Of a DNA stretch of 64,000 bases, positions 4,868 through 62,783 are shown in pieces. The notes below the pieces were generated by a model. It was not told where the DNA came from. It saw only the letters and a program-made list of their open reading frames with translations, and made no database searches. Within the stretch, counting starts at the first letter, position 1, and each line of letters opens with the position of its first letter. The DNA comes from Candidatus Bathyarchaeota archaeon (lineage in GTDB: Archaea > Thermoproteota > Bathyarchaeia > Bathyarchaeales > Bathycorpusculaceae), in the NCBI GenBank assembly GCA_963767735.1, contig CAVYES010000008.1, positions 32,001 to 96,000 of the forward strand. The letters run 5' to 3'. Both the position numbers and the translations under genes were made by a program.

Positions 4868-5092
4868 GCTTATTTCGCAGTCGTAGACCAAATTTTTCGT
4901 CGGGTAGCGGGAGGGTAGGTCAATTTTGCTGGTGGAAATTAGCAGCTAAATTTGGGGTGAAAGGGGTAATCAGTAGAATTGTCGATCAAGGAAGAGTTTT
5001 AACTTTCGGTCGGGGCATCCTCAAAAAGTGTGATATGTTGATGGCTGTAAGCGAAAAATGAAAAAAGGAAATAAAGTTAAGAAGGGGAAAGT

Positions 5093-6271
5093 TTATGCTT
5101 TTTTGGCTTTTTCTAGTTCTTTGCGAAGCACTTCTGCCTTGTCTGTTTGTTCCCAGGTGAATTCTGGTTCTTCTCTTCCGAAGTGGCCGAACACTGCTGT
5201 TTTCTTGTATATTGGTCTTAGCAAGTTTAGTTGATCAATGATTGCTTTAGGCCTCATGTCGAAATGCTTTTTCACTAAGTCGAGAATTTGGTCATCTGTC
5301 AGTTTCCCAGTTTCAGAAGTATTTACCAGCACAGAGATTGGTTGCGCTACCCCGATTGCGTAGGAGATTTGGATTTCACATTGGTCAGCTAAGCCAGCGG
5401 CGACAATGTTTTTGGCGATGTACCTTGCCATGTAACAGCCTGAACGGTCAACTTTTGAGGGGTCTTTACCGCTGAAGCATCCGCCACCGTGACTTCCAAC
5501 TCCGCCGTAAGTGTCAACAATGATTTTTCTGCCGGTTAATCCTGAATCTGCGAGGGTTCCGCCGATTACGAATCTGCCTGTGCCGTTTATAACGTATTTT
5601 ATGTCTTCAGCAATCATGTCTGCGGGTATAACGTTCTTGATTACTTTTTCAATAATATCTTTTTTTAATGTTGCATCGTCAACTGACCCGTTATTTTGTG
5701 CGGCAATAACAACAGCTTTAACACATCTTGTTTTGCATCCGTCATATTCCACTGTTACTTGAGATTTGCAGTCGGGACGCAGATAAGGCATAAGTTTTGT
5801 TTTTCTGCATTCAGCTAAACGCTTAACAAGCTTATGCGCCAGCATGATCGGTAGGGGCATGAGCTCTTTTGTCTCGTTTGTTGCGTAGCCGAAAACCATT
5901 CCTTGGTCGCCAGCGCCCTGCTCATGGCCTTCGGATTCCGTGACACCCATAGAAATGTCTTTAGACTGCTCAGTAATTGAAGTCAAGATGCCGCATGTTT
6001 CCCAGTCTAAGCCATCTTTAGCATTGTCGAACCCGATTTCTTTTAGGGTTTGGCGAACAATTTTCGGGATGTTTACGTAGGTGCATGTGGTTATTTGCCC
6101 CGTAATCATTACGGTTCCCTGCATAACGAGGGTTTCGCAGTCAACTCTTGCTTTGGGGTCTGTGCTGAATATTGCGTCTAAAACGCTGTCGGATATTTGG
6201 TCTGCCACCTTATCTGGGTGACCTTCTCCAACTGACTCTGAAGTGAACAAGTATTTTCCAGTTTTTTTCAT
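5093..6271 (-). CDS. metK: Methionine adenosyltransferase (SAM synthetase), bacterial/eukaryotic type
   Basis: [47 protein letters not shown]; start placed at ATG 6271 (MKKTGKYLF). Confidence 0.97.
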
Positions 6272-6419
6272 AAGAATCGTTCCGTTCAGTTGCAATAAGA
6301 AACTAACATACTTTGCATTTTTCTTAAAAGGTTTTCTGTTAAAAATATTCCGCCGAGAAATATCAAGCCTCCAATTTTGGTACACTGTTAGTTTCTGGGA
6401 ACAACTCTATGTTATTTGC

Positions 6420-6542
6420 CATTTTTGAAACAGTTGTTTTGGTTTGCTTTTTTGGTTTAGGGTTTGAATTGTTTGCAGGTAGAATCGCAAATAATCGTGA
6501 ATAATCGCGTTTAATCGCAAATAATCGTGAATAATCGCGTAG
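6420..6542 (+). repeat. Leader-plus-decamer element, copy A
   Basis: TTGCTTTTTT (6444-6453), N17, GTTTGCAGGTAG (6471-6482), then 6 x 10 bp AATCGYRWWT-type units (6483-6542). Confidence 0.85.
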
Positions 6543-6753
6543 AGGAATGCATATGCGATTACAAGAAAAGTCAGTTTCAAATCGACTGCGGTTAACCAAG
6601 TTGAAGTAATGGCAAGATCATAACTCAAATGACCTCTAACCTAACAGCAATAGCGAAAAATTTTTCGAGGCAGAGCTGATGAGAAATATCAATATACTTC
6701 CTCTTGCAAAAGTGATTTTAACTGCAAATGACACAGACAGGAAGATGAATAAC

Positions 6754-7131
6754 ATGAAGGCAACTGTATTTACTGAGAAAGCGCCAAAACCGGTAGGTCC
6801 ATACAATCAAGCGGTGAGGGCAGGCAAATTCCTATTTGTTTCAGGGCAACTGGCAATCGATCCAAAGGAAGGTAAAATCGTTGCCAAAACCGTGACGCTC
6901 CAGACAAAGCAGGTTATGGAGAACATAAAAGCCATCTTGGAAGCTGCGGGTGTTAGTTTGAAAGATATTGTTCAATCCAACGTGTTCCTTTCTTCTATGG
7001 CCTCGTTTGATGAGTTCAACAGCAAATACGCCGAGTACTTTGATGAGGAATTTCCTGCTCGCGCCACAGTCGGCACAGAATTAAGGGCAGATGCTCTTGT
7101 TGAGGTTTCAGTTGTTGCTTACAAAGACTAA
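6754..7131 (+). CDS. ridA: RidA/YjgF family enamine/imine deaminase
   Basis: APKPVGPYNQAV, FVSGQL, FPARATV, LVEVS; start placed at ATG 6754. Confidence 0.9.
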   Translation: MKATVFTEKAPKPVGPYNQAVRAGKFLFVSGQLAIDPKEGKIVAKTVTLQTKQVMENIKAILEAAGVSLKDIVQSNVFLSSMASFDEFNSKYAEYFDEEFPARATVGTELRADALVEVSVVAYKD

Positions 7132-7194
7132 TCCGCATGGTTCTTTGACAAATTATAAAAACTTAACCAACAATTAGTTAGGGCAGGGCAAAAT

Positions 7195-7821
7195 ATGGCT
7201 GTATCGCTAAAAAAGTTTATACAAGAAATAGCTGGGAAAAAAGCTCCCGGGCCATCAACTACCTTTACGGTATTCCATGTCTTCTATGCTTTAGAGCTTA
7301 TGTCGCGGGAACCTCTTGGCAGAAATAAGCTGGCTAAGAAACTCAACGTTGGCGACGGAGCAGTCCGCACAATAATAAGCAGACTTAGAAATGCTGGTCT
7401 AATTGAAACCTCAAAAGAAGGCTGCAGTTTAACGAAGATGGGTTTAGAGGTTTGGGGGCAGTTTGAACAAGTTTTTCCTAAACGCGTTGAGATTCCGAAA
7501 AATGAATTGATTGAATCTGAATTTGTTTTTGCTTTTTTGGTGAAAAACAGCGGGCAAAAAGTTCGATCAGGAATAGATCAGCGCGATGCGGCTATCATAG
7601 CGGGTGCACGTAAAGCCCTAGTTATCGTTTTTAAAGACGGTCATTTGTGCATTGAATCAGTCAGTGAATGTATCGAGAAGGATTATCCGAAGGCAGCATG
7701 CGAAATTCTCAGGGAATTCGCGCCTCAGGACAACGACGCAATTGTTATTGCTGGTGCTGATTCAGCTCTGAGAGCTAAGCGTGGGGCTTTTGCAGCGAGT
7801 TGGTCGCTGATTAGCGCTTAA
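7195..7821 (+). CDS. Archaeal winged-HTH domain protein (DUF4443-like)
   Basis: GRNKLAKKLNVGDGAVRTIISRL HTH; GIDQRDAAIIAGA motif. Confidence 0.75.
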   Translation: MAVSLKKFIQEIAGKKAPGPSTTFTVFHVFYALELMSREPLGRNKLAKKLNVGDGAVRTIISRLRNAGLIETSKEGCSLTKMGLEVWGQFEQVFPKRVEIPKNELIESEFVFAFLVKNSGQKVRSGIDQRDAAIIAGARKALVIVFKDGHLCIESVSECIEKDYPKAACEILREFAPQDNDAIVIAGADSALRAKRGAFAASWSLISA

Positions 7822-7825
7822 CTTT

Positions 7826-8587
7826 TTAAGTTGTGTATTTTTCTCCTTCGTTTAAGATTCTCTCAAGGACTGTGTTAATGTTTGTCATGCCTTCGTTTGT
7901 TTTGGATGAAAGGGGCATGAGCAAAAATTGTAATCCGAGCTTGTTGATGGCTTGCATCATGTTGCGGCTGAACAGACGTTTTGTGCCTTCAAGTTTCTCT
8001 TCAATTGCGTCTTCCAACGCTCTTGTGTTAGCTGACCAAGTTGCAATTGCTTGCACATCCTTTTTTGGTAGCAAATCGATTTTGGAGAGAACATGCAGTT
8101 GCGGCTGGAAGAAACGATTGTAAACTGCGGCGGAAAGAAACATGTTTGAAACATAGTTCATCGGATTAGCTGAGAATACAGCGTCAAAGAGGTAAATTAA
8201 CGCTTTAGGCTCCTTTGTTAACTCATCAACAATGTATGGTCCGCTCGCCCGGAAAGCAAACAGCTCCATCTGCCCAGGAGTATCAACCAAAACGATGTCA
8301 GCGTGGGCTTCTTCGATGTCGCGTGTCAAATTTTCGATTTCATCAGCAATTAAATCTGCAGCCATAATCAAAGCGCCATTTGGACCTAAACCATACTTCT
8401 CCATTATATCGCCGACATCGACATAGTTGCGCACATCAACATCCGGCGAGTAAGGCAACTTCAACGCACCAGGATCCAAATTAACAACGGCGACATCCTG
8501 CTTAGACATTTTTAGCCATTCACTAAAAGCTGCAGTGAACAAAGATTTACCAGAACCAGCTGTTCCAATAACAAACGCGAGGGGCAC
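7826..8587 (-). CDS. GPN-loop GTPase
   Basis: GTAGSGKS, NLDPG, GLGPNGAL, DTPGQMELF, SKID. Confidence 0.95.
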   Translation of the reverse strand: MPLAFVIGTAGSGKSLFTAAFSEWLKMSKQDVAVVNLDPGALKLPYSPDVDVRNYVDVGDIMEKYGLGPNGALIMAADLIADEIENLTRDIEEAHADIVLVDTPGQMELFAFRASGPYIVDELTKEPKALIYLFDAVFSANPMNYVSNMFLSAAVYNRFFQPQLHVLSKIDLLPKKDVQAIATWSANTRALEDAIEEKLEGTKRLFSRNMMQAINKLGLQFLLMPLSSKTNEGMTNINTVLERILNEGEKYTT

Positions 8588-8699
8588 CTTTTTTTCTCTC
8601 CGCTAACGTGTGAATGAAACTAAAAGTAATAACCTTTCTGTATCAAGCGCCCAGCACTAAATAGCGAAAACCACACAAAATTGAACAGACTGATTCGGG

Positions 8700-8798
8700 T
8701 TGTTTTTTTAATTTGGGCTTGGTTTTGTTTGCAGGTTGTGTGCTTTTTTGTGCTTTTTTGTGTTGAATTGTGCGGATTTGTGTGGAATTGTGCCGGAT
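8700..8798 (+). repeat. Leader-plus-decamer element, copy B1
   Basis: TTGTTTTTTT (8700-8709), N17, GTTTGCAGGTTG (8727-8738), then 6 x 10 bp TGTGY-started units (8739-8798). Confidence 0.8.
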
Positions 8799-8830
8799 TA
8801 TTGAAGAGTCACTCTGAGTTGTTTAGCGGC

Positions 8831-8953
8831 AAATTTTGAACAAGCCGTTCTAAGTTGCTTTTTTGGTTTAGAACTCGATTCGTTTGCAGGTTGAGTAAAG
8901 AAAAGTAACAGAAAGTAAGGAAACGTAAGGAAAAGTAAAGGAAAGTAACAGAA
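8831..8953 (+). repeat. Leader-plus-decamer element, copy B2
   Basis: TTGCTTTTTT (8855-8864), N17, GTTTGCAGGTTG (8882-8893), then 6 x 10 bp AGTAANRRAA-type units (8894-8953). Confidence 0.85.
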
Positions 8954-9178
8954 AATTTCCGTATGCATAGGCAAATTTTCGTGGCTTGAACAGTTTTGAT
9001 CCGCAGAGATAGTCGAATTTGATTGCATTATTTTAGGGATGCGTGGATTACTTTTTGGAGGTGTAGATGAAATATATCGCCGGATAAAGTTAAGCAAGCA
9101 TACTAACAGTATTGATACTAATAAGACGATAGAAGAGAAAACAAACCTTGAATGCACTCGGTAATAGCCCTAACTTAT

Positions 9179-9529
9179 TCAAGTAGAAGGCACTAAATTC
9201 TCTGTGAATGTGGTTATTCCTGATGGGACGTAAAATGACTTGTAAACGTTTTCTTGATATGCATATGGTGGAAGGTTAAATACATTGTATGATTGTCCAC
9301 CTGTCAGCAAAACGCTGTATTGACCATTAACAACATTTGCACTTGTGTTAAATGTTCCACTTAAACTTTCGAAATAAAGAATACTAGCATTGTGAGGAGA
9401 AACCGTACCAGATACTTGCACTACGTTGTTCAATTCAGTTGGCAACTTAATAACTGCACCAATCCATATTCCTAACACTAAAACAACCACTAAACCAACT
9501 GCAATACCAATGATTACTTTACTAGCCAT
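9179..9529 (-). CDS. Hypothetical protein, N-terminal membrane anchor plus small beta-rich domain
   Basis: Hydrophobic N-terminus; VSGTV...GQYSVLLTGGQSYNV; GGAG upstream. Confidence 0.7.
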   Translation of the reverse strand: MASKVIIGIAVGLVVVLVLGIWIGAVIKLPTELNNVVQVSGTVSPHNASILYFESLSGTFNTSANVVNGQYSVLLTGGQSYNVFNLPPYAYQENVYKSFYVPSGITTFTENLVPST

Positions 9530-9799
9530 TCTGCTAATCTCCTTTTTTTATTTAGCTTATTCTGAGAATTGAAGATTTAAGACTTATCTACTCTGTAATA
9601 GCGAAGTTCCTAACCCTCGAATATACTCTTGGTAATAGCCCTAAAAATGAAAATATCGCTTTACTCCCTTACTGAGAAAGTGGGCAATACAAAATGCTGA
9701 ATAGACGATTGGTCCAATAATCTCAAAATAAAAGCCTTCTGAAATGCGGTTCTGTGAAGTCCTCGGTTGAAATGGGGTTCATGTGAAAATTCGGTTGAT

Positions 9800-10138
9800 T
9801 TACACGTATTTATTCTCGTTATTACAATACCATCGCTTGTATTGTTCTATGTATGTTAGGGGTTGTCCACATGAACTACAATAAATTTTTTGTTGAGGGC
9901 TTGACATGGAACTGGGCACTGAATATAATCTAATAATTCTCTGTTCAGCCTGAGCGAATCCCCCTGCAAATCCAACACCGAAACCAATCATCGACATTCC
10001 AGCTATGCCACTATCCAAAAGACTGTATGCTCCAAAAATTGCTGAGAAAGTTATAGCGAGTCCAGCGATGATTAGACCCACTGAAATTATTGAGACAACT
10101 CTATTATACTTCTTGATTTTTATTTCTTTTTCATCCAT
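9800..10138 (-). CDS. Membrane protein with C-terminal zinc-ribbon-like motif
   Basis: Two hydrophobic segments; YCSSCGQPLTYIEQYKRWYC. Confidence 0.75.
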   Translation of the reverse strand: MDEKEIKIKKYNRVVSIISVGLIIAGLAITFSAIFGAYSLLDSGIAGMSMIGFGVGFAGGFAQAEQRIIRLYSVPSSMSSPQQKIYCSSCGQPLTYIEQYKRWYCNNENKYV

Positions 10139-37314: not shown

Positions 37315-38682
37315 TTACTGATGAATACTGTTGATTTTTTGCTTAGTTTTCAATCGGTTTCGAGACATAACGAAAAATAATGCAATGATAATTACAGCTG
37401 CAATCACTATTCCAACTATAATGAATAGATTGTCAGAAGAGCTAGTCGAAGAGACCGAGGTAGGCGAAGGAGATGACGTAGACGAAAGAGATGACGTAGG
37501 CGAAGGAGACAATTCAGAAAAAGCGCCTAAAGCATAAACTTTGTGGTTGTATGAGCCTATGTAGACTACTCCATTAACAACAGCGGGAGAAGAATACACC
37601 CAGAGGCCTGTATTGTAATTCCAGAGTTTGGCGCCGTTAGCAGCATTCAAAGCATAAACGTTACCATCACCAGAACCTACGTAAACTACACCGTCAACAA
37701 CTGCAGGAGACGAACCAATATTACCGCCAGTAACATATTTCCAGAGCTGATTCCCGTTGGCAGCATTTAAAGCGTAAACGGTACCGTTATAGGTGGTGCT
37801 AAACAAGTTGGAATTTTCTGAACCTATGTAAACTACCCCATTAACAACGGCAGGTGACGAACCAACATTACCGCCAATGGAGTGCTTCCAGACTTTGGTG
37901 CCGTTAGCAGCATTCAAAGCATAAACATCACCATTATTCGAGCCAACATATACTACACTGCCGACAACTGCTGGAGAAGAATTGACTGCGCTTCCAGTGG
38001 TGTAATTCCAGAGTTTGTCACCGTTAGCAGCGTTCAAAGCATAAACATTACCATCACCAGAACCGACATAGACTACACCTCCAACAACAGCAGGAGACGA
38101 AACTACCCCACCGCTAGTATGATAGTTCCAGAGTTCGGAACCGTTAGATGCGCCCAAAGCGTAAACGTTACCAGTATAGGTGCCGAACAAAGAGGTGGAA
38201 ACTTCTGAACCTATGTAGACTACGCCATTGACAACAGCAGGAGAAGAATCAACAGCGCTACCAACCGTGTAATTCCAAAGTTTTACTCCATTAACAGCGT
38301 TTAAAGCATAAACATCACCGTCATCCGAGCCAACATAAACCACCCCGCCAACAACAGCAGGAGACGAATCAACATAGTCATAATAGCCAGCAGTATAATT
38401 CCAAAGTTTTGCGCCGCTAGCAGCGCTCAAAGCATAAACATCACCGTCATCCGAGCCGACATAAACCACCCCGCCAACAACAGCAGGAGACGAATCAACA
38501 TAGTCACCAGTAGTATAATTCCATATTAGAGTGGGAGTAAGCACCGAATTGCCGGCGGCCACACCACTATGAGATAAATCCGAGTGGAACATTGCCCAAT
38601 CAGCGTTCGCAAACGGAATTAAAACTAAGCTCAAAAGAAAAATCAAGCAAGCTACTGCTACTACCGCATGCAACCTCTTCAT
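37315..38682 (-). CDS. PQQ-binding-like (BamB-type) beta-propeller surface protein with C-terminal TM
   Basis: Repeats SSPAVVxGVVYVGSxDGxVYALNAxxGxKLWNY; WAMFHSD. Confidence 0.9.
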   Translation of the reverse strand: MKRLHAVVAVACLIFLLSLVLIPFANADWAMFHSDLSHSGVAAGNSVLTPTLIWNYTTGDYVDSSPAVVGGVVYVGSDDGDVYALSAASGAKLWNYTAGYYDYVDSSPAVVGGVVYVGSDDGDVYALNAVNGVKLWNYTVGSAVDSSPAVVNGVVYIGSEVSTSLFGTYTGNVYALGASNGSELWNYHTSGGVVSSPAVVGGVVYVGSGDGNVYALNAANGDKLWNYTTGSAVNSSPAVVGSVVYVGSNNGDVYALNAANGTKVWKHSIGGNVGSSPAVVNGVVYIGSENSNLFSTTYNGTVYALNAANGNQLWKYVTGGNIGSSPAVVDGVVYVGSGDGNVYALNAANGAKLWNYNTGLWVYSSPAVVNGVVYIGSYNHKVYALGAFSELSPSPTSSLSSTSSPSPTSVSSTSSSDNLFIIVGIVIAAVIIIALFFVMSRNRLKTKQKINSIHQ

Positions 38683-62216: not shown

Positions 62217-62522
62217 GTTTTTCGCCTTCTAACAAAGAAGTATCGCCAAAGCATGCTTTAAATGTGCAAACATTGCTGCTCGTTGGCTATTCTCCTCATA
62301 ACTAACATGATAATTGGCTGGGTTAGAAACCTTTCGCAAAACGCGCGCTGCCTTGTCCCGAAATTATGTGTTGAAGAAAGTAGGTGAGGCTTTTTGTCGT
62401 GTCTGCCGATGTTTTCTGCGGCCTCTGTTCAGAACCAAACACAATATGCTGTACAAGGCGTAGCATGCAACGCTTTCTAAGCTTCTGACTTTGTTCGTGG
62501 TATTTTAGGGACAAACCAGCGT

Positions 62523-62655
62523 GCTTTTGACTTTTATTGACGTTTTTTGGCTTTTCTTGACGTCTATTGACTTTCTTTGACTTTTGTTGACGCAACCTGC
62601 AAACAATTTAAGCTCTGCTTCAAAAAAGCAACCTAAAGCAGCCTGAACAAAAATT
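62523..62655 (-). repeat. Leader-plus-decamer element, copy C
   Basis: Minus strand: TTGCTTTTTT (62631-62622), N17, GTTTGCAGGTTG (62604-62593), then 7 x 10 bp MGTCAA-type units (62592-62523). Confidence 0.85.
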
Positions 62656-62783
62656 TGCGACATAACAACTGTTTTCTGCACAAACGATAACCACACCAAA
62701 AATTAGAGACAGAGCAGCTCACGACCTACCCAAGAACAGGTTTCATTTAATATTGGTTTAGAACCACTTTGGTGCGGTTAAGG

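Follow-up and report, generated by a model that had tools for sequence, protein, structure and literature searches.

Decamer arrays behind a conserved leader in Bathyarchaeia: a probable promoter-operator module of a PhS018/MraZ-like regulator family

How can one fixed leader be followed, at scattered places in an archaeal genome, by a tandem array whose period and start point are kept while the repeated unit differs from locus to locus? The question is raised by a stretch of 64,000 nucleotides (nt; hereafter the window) of a Candidatus Bathyarchaeota archaeon (GenBank assembly GCA_963767735.1, contig CAVYES010000008.1, positions 32,001 to 96,000 of the forward strand), the archaeal genome of which comprises 3.04 Mb in 10 contigs. 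The explanation that we favour, and which we hold to be probable rather than established, is that the element is the promoter-operator module of a family of small PhS018/MraZ-like regulators, amplified in the genus partly by miniature inverted-repeat transposable elements (MITEs).

The pattern TTGYTTTTTT-N17-GTTTGCAGG was matched four times in the window, at 6444-6479 (plus strand; copy A), 8700-8735 (plus; B1), 8855-8890 (plus; B2) and 62596-62631 (minus; C). The chance expectation is 0.04 and none of 100 shuffles reached four matches; all four intergenic leader copies named in the original prediction proved exact, with no mismatches. Tandem Repeats Finder placed an array with a period of 10 base pairs (bp) immediately 3' of every copy, at 6483-6539 for A (5.7 copies), 8739-8799 for B1 (two period-10 rows and one period-20 row), 8894-8954 for B2 (6.1 copies) and 62525-62591 for C (6.7 copies), and likewise recovered the 30-bp higher-order duplication reported for A (100% over 1.9 copies). 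The similarity further upstream of the leader, previously ascribed to three copies, is visible in A, B2 and C and weaker in B1.

Genome-wide, the pattern yielded 60 matches at one mismatch or fewer, and the reversed control pattern none. A leader profile of 87 nt gave 98 matches at E < 1e-3, forming 68 clusters of one to three units. In the 70 nt that follow, 10 was the best period for 86 of the 98 leader matches, compared with 184 of 3000 control intergenic windows, and a lag-10 self-identity of at least 0.5 was reached by 70 of the 98 matches and by 2 of the 3000 controls. Under a strict array definition, a leader precedes every one of the 43 strong period-10 arrays of the genome, and periods of 7-9 and 11-14 gave 0 to 4 arrays genome-wide. 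The coupling of leader and array, chosen beforehand as the point on which the idea was to stand or fall, thus held in both directions (86/98 leaders with an array, 43/43 strong arrays with a leader).

Beyond this genome, a scan of species-representative genomes returned, among the 80 stretches listed of at least 108, the pattern only in records of Candidatus Bathyarchaeia/Bathyarchaeota. It occurs in 13 of 24 other genomes of the genus, with 1 to 48 copies each, and the 16 genomes scanned from the order's other families contain none. Loci of relatives totalling 861 kb yielded 167 leader matches, 155 of them followed by period 10, with many further unit types among these arrays and some perfect ninefold repeats. 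Two matches in a scan of viral sequences (IMG/VR) were attributed to chance, since both lacked an array and leader context.

Thirteen of the 98 leader matches have no clear array (for instance C6:9436, C6:346549, C6:360019 and C6:350489, where C2 to C8 denote contigs of this genome). One array-less leader lies 125 nt upstream of an open reading frame (ORF) resembling seryl-tRNA synthetase, named by eye from its first residues, and two precede a common sequence, GGCG...GATTTAGGTAAAATTGAAGCTAAATCTTC. The 16S rRNA gene (C5:525706-527201) has two leader-array units about 1.4 kb away on the other strand, at C5:524047-524266.

The anatomy of the arrays was read in a register taken from the leader, for the 44 arrays whose leader alignment reaches its end. 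The repeated unit consists of a 4-nt core, mostly GTNN, and a 6-nt A- or T-rich spacer, with G at position 0 in 79% of units and T at position 1 in 92%. Identity within arrays was.97,.92,.79,.77,.51,.45,.55,.68,.84 and.76 for the ten successive positions; inside arrays the core is conserved and mid-spacer positions vary freely, the spacer ending in A-rich sequence (T-rich in some classes). Core classes comprise GTCA, GTAA/GTGA, GTGC, GTAC/GGAC, ATCG and others, and were counted by eye, as an automatic most-frequent-triplet caller was too noisy, the A-rich spacers winning. Arrays hold between 4 and 10 units, most often 6 (20 of 44 arrays, about 60 bp), and show the arrangement expected of an MraZ-type operator, in which a 4-nt box recurs directly at least three times at a 10-bp period, separated by 6-nt spacers. 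With a 4-nt core and a 6-nt spacer, successive cores come to lie on the same side of the helix. The idea that T-rich arrays are inverted A-rich arrays, or that the two form sense-antisense pairs, was dropped because all arrays carry GT at positions 0-1 in the leader register.

Some arrays are hybrids. At C4:8468, C3:122336, C5:547094 and C7:338521, a run of five to six ATCG boxes passes directly into one of three to four GTAGC boxes, which are offset by 5 nt and hence face the opposite side of the helix, and no second leader intervenes. Perfect recent expansions of a single unit, with eight to nine or more copies each, occur at C3:40947 and at loci L058, L076, L098 and L109 of relatives, the expanded units being GGACAAGGAA (at least nine times at C3:40947), TGTGTCGGGA, CGTCACTAAA and GTGAAGGAAA; these expansions show that slippage is going on in exact 10-bp steps.

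What the leader and its array belong to is indicated by the genes behind them. Several arrays are followed by an ORF beginning MPLTxxVSFK, which represents a family of proteins of 92-94 residues. All family loci detected in the genome by tblastn and profile search (14 in one search, 12 in another) lie directly behind a leader and array, so that the boxes of the gene-linked copies belong to the promoter of the regulator itself and immediately precede its gene. Four family genes are intact, those at C5:73684-73968, C4:170399-170677, C4:302699-302977 and C5:317911-318189, and the remainder are frameshifted or truncated, possibly in part through sequencing error in this long-read assembly. The family gene or a remnant of it lies no more than 560 nt from 21 of the 98 leaders, the other 77 having none within that distance. 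The leader and the protein were found together in 11 of the 24 genus genomes, neither in 8, the leader alone in 2 and the protein alone in 3, counts that come from relatives and hence are not independent.

The same arrangement is seen in distant relatives. A metagenome scan recovered 388 relatives, of which 80 loci were kept and 54 were non-redundant with enough upstream DNA. In the 70 nt before the start codon, 10 was the best period at 42 of the 54 loci, compared with 4 of 54 control windows placed 250 nt further upstream. A YTTAAR motif, mostly CTTAAAT, is present upstream in 51 of the 54, at positions clustering near -63, -73 and -83, i.e. in steps of one box, and the typical layout is ...aaaGCTTAAATCcagcttagcccacGTCtaataatGACGcagaaaGGCGcaatacGTCAagaaaaGGCGaaattcaac-ATG. 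In the genus of the window, GTTTGCAGGTTG lies between the TATA-like motif and the first box, which begins at the same distance of 20 nt from TTAAAT. Reading CTTAAAT as a TATA box is supported by the TTTAAAT-like boxes upstream of the tRNA genes of this genome, and 10 of the 15 gene-linked copies have a TTAAA-type motif at this fixed point of the leader. The upstream layout shared by the metagenome loci argues that the leader is the promoter of the gene family, with the array lying between TATA box and start codon. The account originally given for these repeats lacked the gene of a small, putatively DNA-binding protein to which the promoter belongs, and with it the analogy to MraZ boxes.

The family alignment displays two similar halves, ...GNR[IV]Q[IV]P... 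and ...KDGRITIP.... An AlphaFold model of the protein had a predicted local distance difference test score (pLDDT) of 90.6, and its top Foldseek match was PhS018 (2glw), with a template modelling (TM) score of 0.74-0.75 over 88 columns, followed by cryo-electron microscopy structures of MraZ-promoter DNA complexes. A profile search of the sequences in the Protein Data Bank (PDB) likewise ranked 2glw first (E = 5e-4 over residues 8-76), and its next, weak matches were MraZ and AbrB. As judged from this fold similarity in the model, the protein is a PhS018-like cradle-loop barrel of the AbrB/MraZ kind. It does not group with the MraZ family itself, as it had no Pfam match and the MraZ chains in the PDB reached only E values of 0.25-0.34; the genes downstream are unrelated and differ between paralogues, with no dcw (mraW/ftsZ) operon. 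The 84 homologues are unnamed, 'hypothetical' or 'AbrB-type antitoxin', and, where an organism is given, it belongs to Bathyarchaeia. The name 'antitoxin', given to some homologues by the Joint Genome Institute (JGI), led to a toxin-antitoxin pair being considered; it was rejected as unlikely because no conserved partner gene follows the four intact genes. A complex prediction with four protein copies scored 0.00 and weighs neither way.

Under the promoter-operator explanation, the leader would be the conserved promoter of the 92-94-residue family, with its TATA-like CTTAAAT 20 nt before the first box, and the decamers would be operator boxes, the array spanning approximately the stretch from the predicted transcription start to the start codon. 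Judging by the 20-nt distance between TATA-like motif and box, transcription is predicted to start within or next to the first box. By analogy with MraZ on its GTG(G/T)-N6 boxes, each turn of the helix may present one core to one protein subunit, and the promoter would be repressed once the array is filled. The period would then be set by DNA geometry and the start point by promoter geometry, and the unit would differ between loci because each paralogous regulator has its own recognition loop and its own box. Arrays would lengthen and shorten by slippage, and the module minus its gene would have spread to about 100 copies in this genome, some of which may still function as solo elements.

The pairing of loops and boxes is consistent with this scheme. 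The paralogues vary most in their first recognition loop, and every type of this loop is paired with a core of its own: GKGNRIQ is accompanied by GGTT, EKNNNIQ by GTAA/GTGA, K[RS]RNLLQ by GTGC, Q[SR]F[NS]KVQ by (C)GAC, QKTNTVQ by GCGT, ERYNRII by GGTA/GGTG, QRHNRLA by GATA and Q[KR]GNR[VI]Q mostly by GTC. A crude automatic box caller found GGT with 10 of 11 GKGNRIQ/GRGNRIQ proteins and GTC with 19 of 37 Q[KR]GNRVQ proteins. Among the 44 arrays, classes with an intact matching regulator in the genome account for 13 (GTAA/GTGA), 8 (GTGC) and 1 (GACT).

Most copies in the genome are solo, without a gene, which raises the question of how they were dispersed. Element A, in the window, is a 314-bp insertion (6367..6680, plus strand) made up of leader, ATCG-box array and tail, and is flanked by two copies of a 12-bp target-site duplication, GAGAAATATCAA (6355..6366 and 6681..6692), delimited by alignment with empty sites in two related genomes, G046 and G004. 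At the orthologous site in both relatives, between the genes for S-adenosylmethionine (SAM) synthetase and RidA, the element is missing, the flanks abut and GAGAAATATCAA is present once, not twice. A MITE at C2:197547-198060 similarly has precise empty sites in G018, G046 and G052 and a 10-bp duplication, so that the search for empty sites at orthologous loci, suggested at the outset, succeeded for two elements. The B locus in G004 and G046 carries no such elements, and for C5:350275-350581 no collinear flanks were found in five relatives.

A subset of elements has inverted terminal repeats, GCTCTGTCTCTAAtttttggtg ... ccaccaaaatatTTAGAGACAGAGC. In five complete pairs the two repeats stand 307-520 bp apart, and direct repeats of about 7-10 bp, some of them imperfect, flank the pairs; these five pairs and a few single ends are all that the 68 clusters contain. 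In the window, element C has a left end of the inverted-repeat type and element A a right end. At two mismatches or fewer, the inverted repeat was absent from G013, G018 and G019, which hold 48, 8 and 9 leaders, and had one match with two mismatches each in G046 and G052. No autonomous partner with a transposase was found in the scans of this genome, where all inverted-repeat pairs are 307-520 bp apart, and of G013, G018, G019, G046 and G052. Leader, array and tail modules are combined in mosaic fashion among the copies. Some are true MITEs and others are decayed gene copies; the mixed ends, the lack of inverted repeats in leader-rich relatives and the mosaic structure indicate more than one route of spread. 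Leaders are found upstream of RidA, a hybrid-cluster-protein-like gene, membrane proteins and others. This placement before varied ordinary genes, together with the 22 of 44 arrays whose class does have an intact matching regulator, speaks for a function of the solo copies.

A candidate autonomous transposon, suggested by a 13-mer that matched in three places, proved to be a 3-kb repeat with a RadA gene and not an insertion sequence. The three copies (C5:134814-137885, C5:1-3067 and C6:1-3065; two at contig starts) are 98-99% identical and carry RadA/Rad51-family and ribbon-helix-helix genes, and may represent a triplication or an assembly artefact. Other subfamilies have different ends; GCGCGC occurs at both ends of two of them, those with ATATCC and with GTCA boxes (C3:96241, C4:206227, C6:348792, C6:514385, C7:378660 and window 62343-62718), and may reflect a target preference or a recombination site. 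Elements of the ATATCC type end within the first codons of the regulator gene, ...TTGCCGTTAACACAAAGAGTCATTTTAGCGCGC.

The remaining anatomy of the window copies is as follows. The promoter-like leader of A (6401..6483, plus; TTGCTTTTTT-N17-GTTTGCAGG at 6444-6479) has GTTTGAAT where gene-linked copies have CTTAAAT. It is followed by six 10-bp units of ATCG and 6 nt, in which a 30-bp block occurs twice (6484..6543, plus), and, at the right end of the element, by a 13-mer resembling an inverted terminal repeat, GCTCTGCCTCGAA (6664..6676, minus), with two mismatches to GCTCTGTCTCTAA. B1 and B2 form a two-unit cluster, similar to clusters at eight other loci in the genome. The B1 leader (8670..8740, plus) precedes about six units with GTGC/GTGT boxes and T-rich spacers (8740..8799, plus); the B2 leader (8818..8896, plus) lies directly behind the B1 tail and precedes six GTAA boxes with A-rich spacers (8895..8954, plus). 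Element C (62343..62718, minus; about 376 bp) was delimited by alignment with three paralogous copies, its ends being GCTGCTCTGTCTCTAATTTTTGG on the left (62696-62718) and ...GGCAGCGCGC on the right (near 62343). Its leader (62590..62674, minus) has GCTTAAAT at the TATA position, and its array consists of seven GTCA boxes with A-rich spacers (62522..62591, minus).

The 250-nt tail of this GTCA-type element holds, at 62345-62520 (minus), an ORF of 63-67 residues (MSLKYHEQSQK...), open in three of four copies (the paralogues being at C2:167069, C6:517111 and C8:6695), which are too alike to judge coding. Elsewhere in the window, long tandem repeats with periods of 120, 126 and 387 bp at 37614-38500 are probably part of a gene for a repeat-domain protein. 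Contigs from four peat metatranscriptome runs, 90-99% alike, cover window positions 5093-6385 and 7826-8587 with the SAM synthetase and GPN-loop ATPase genes, which indicates that relatives of the organism are present in those libraries. Over the interval compared, 5000-10000, these contigs leave 6336-7671 and 8674-10000 bare, which weighs neither way on whether the elements are transcribed.

Several observations weigh against the promoter-operator explanation. The Pfam search with the 92-94-residue proteins matched no family, and among the AbrB models TIGR01439 reached 15.2 bits, relative to a cut-off of 28.3, with one of four proteins. To our knowledge, PhS018 itself has no demonstrated function. 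The match of loops and boxes amounts to consistency and not to proof, because a gene and its own upstream DNA are co-inherited. For 22 of the 44 arrays, the core class has no intact regulator of the adjacent type in the genome (ATCG 8, GTCA 7, GCGT 3, GGAC 2, GTAT 1 and ATCC 1), and many solo arrays may consequently have no reader. The TATA position bears a TTAAA-type motif in 21 of 83 solo leaders and is degenerate in 62, and the orientation of solo copies is unbiased with respect to the next gene (48 same, 50 opposite, by crude longest-ORF calls).

Much of this would also be expected if the solo copies were selfish DNA only, non-functional relics of MITEs and gene decay whose arrays are minisatellites kept by slippage and whose positions were inherited from an ancestral operator. 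The inverted terminal repeats, target duplications and empty sites, the perfect recent expansions such as that of GGACAAGGAA, the absence at orthologous loci of relatives that are about 88% identical, the degenerate TATA positions, the lack of orientation bias and the half of the arrays without an intact cognate-type regulator all agree with it. Such an explanation accounts for the spread, but not for the origin, as the layout before the regulator gene is kept across distant Bathyarchaeia; moreover, the solo arrays with a matching regulator (the 13 GTAA/GTGA and 8 GTGC arrays) would be bound if the regulator binds at all. As a complete account we consider it unlikely. A more ambitious extension of the promoter-operator explanation, which we put forward as a doubtful conjecture, is a co-diversifying system in which promoter-bearing miniature transposons are opposed by fast-evolving cradle-loop-barrel repressors, a new box variant in a spreading element being matched by a paralogue with a changed recognition loop. 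That the arrays are instead bent or histone-positioning DNA, with a tetramer or hypernucleosome just downstream of the promoter and with the identity of the core irrelevant, would suit the strict 10-bp alternation of core and A/T-rich spacer and the modal array of six units or about 60 bp, and the genome encodes two histone-fold proteins. Arrays nevertheless range from 4 to 10 units and not in 30-bp steps, the core is far better conserved than the spacer with GT at a fixed register across classes, the core class tracks the adjacent regulator paralogue, and histone genes are present in all five genus genomes checked that lack leader and regulator. This makes a histone role quite unlikely; from the helical-phase architecture next to a protein-binding site that had been proposed, the phase and the protein-binding role are retained, whereas the histone footprint is not favoured.

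A function at the level of RNA, in which the leader drives a small RNA or a 5' untranslated region of 10-nt repeats that is bound by protein or acts as a sponge, is suggested by the position of the array downstream of the TATA-like motif, where it is predicted to be transcribed, and by the roughly half of elements that have no gene on the same strand behind them. Folding z-scores of -1.40, -1.46, +0.30 and -0.11 for the four window copies gave no stable structure, however, and Rfam 15 returned only a tRNA at gathering score in the window and nothing at E ≤ 1 on the elements in 6300-9100. The fold of the associated protein is known for DNA binding, and a period of 10 nt is readily understood on duplex DNA. 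We therefore judge an RNA function to be distinctly improbable. Of the earlier alternative of a non-coding RNA or a non-autonomous mobile element, the mobile part survives for a subset of copies, with their inverted repeats, duplications and empty sites, whereas a structured RNA finds no support. Synthesis of the repeats in place by a leader-recognising enzyme, template-directed or telomerase-like, was a further suggestion, and the fixed start point with variable units, as well as the perfection of some arrays, could be taken as its signature. It found no support in the neighbourhoods inspected, where no reverse transcriptase or recombinase lies beside the elements (no systematic search was made), and the unit classes are common to many loci and travel with their flanks as whole elements, which argues for copying rather than local synthesis; we find it hardly credible.

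If the promoter-operator explanation is right, an uncharacterised protein family from an abundant but uncultured class of archaea would gain a concrete, testable function with predicted binding sites, as would, by extension, the PhS018 fold. The dozens of natural regulator-box pairs would offer a way to learn how a cradle-loop barrel reads 4 bp per turn. An archaeal cassette of promoter plus operator, spread by miniature transposons, would be raw material for rapid regulon evolution; were co-diversification to be true as well, it would be an archaeal counterpart of transposon-driven regulon rewiring or of the arms race between repressors and transposons in animals, and the natural loop-box pairs would form a recognition code that can be read for this fold. 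In annotation, a label becomes available for about 100 intergenic repeats in each genome of the genus.

In the open-access literature, supplements excluded, no paper was found on tandem-repeat promoters or miniature inverted-repeat elements of Bathyarchaeia, or on matching archaeal 10-bp AbrB operators. The elements resemble MITEs in their length of 307-520 bp, the absence of a transposase gene, target duplications of 9-12 bp, precise empty sites in relatives and inverted terminal repeats of about 25 bp, GCTCTGTCTCTAA(T/A)NTTTTGGTG; they differ in that their cargo is a promoter and operator array, not anonymous sequence, and in that complete repeat pairs are few. Putative mobile promoters, reported as highly similar promoters upstream of unrelated genes in one genome (PMC3575422), share with them the occurrence of the same leader before unrelated genes, whereas here an operator array is carried along and the source gene family can be identified.

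PhS018 of Pyrococcus horikoshii (2glw) is the closest relative of the protein by profile (E = 5e-4) and by fold (TM 0.74-0.75, root-mean-square deviation 2.0 Å), and is alike in having 92 residues and an internal two-fold repeat, the sequence identity being 18%. We know of no operator or function for PhS018. On the basis of an alignment, one published analysis predicts for it a DNA recognition like that of AbrB-type proteins (PMC4333400).

In layout and proposed mechanism, the module comes closest to the MraZ operators of the bacterial dcw cluster. MraZ binds three to four GTG(G/T) boxes that are separated by 6-nt spacers, each box taking up one subunit in its major groove; transcription starts inside box 1, and MraZ represses its own operon (PMC12957436). 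Both systems have 4-nt direct repeats that start with GT and 6-nt spacers at a 10-bp period, placed between the promoter and the regulator's own gene, and in both the regulator is a small protein of two AbrB-like half-domains, MraZ-DNA complexes being the second-best structural match to the modelled protein. In contrast to MraZ, the system described here is archaeal, has 4 to 10 or more boxes instead of three to four, and comprises paralogues that each have their own core; its gene is solitary and outside any dcw operon, its protein has no MraZ or Pfam match and aligns with the MraZ structure at a TM score of only about 0.45, and about 100 dispersed copies of the element exist. The element is best described, by analogy, as one that would work like an MraZ operator under a regulator that is not a member of the MraZ family.

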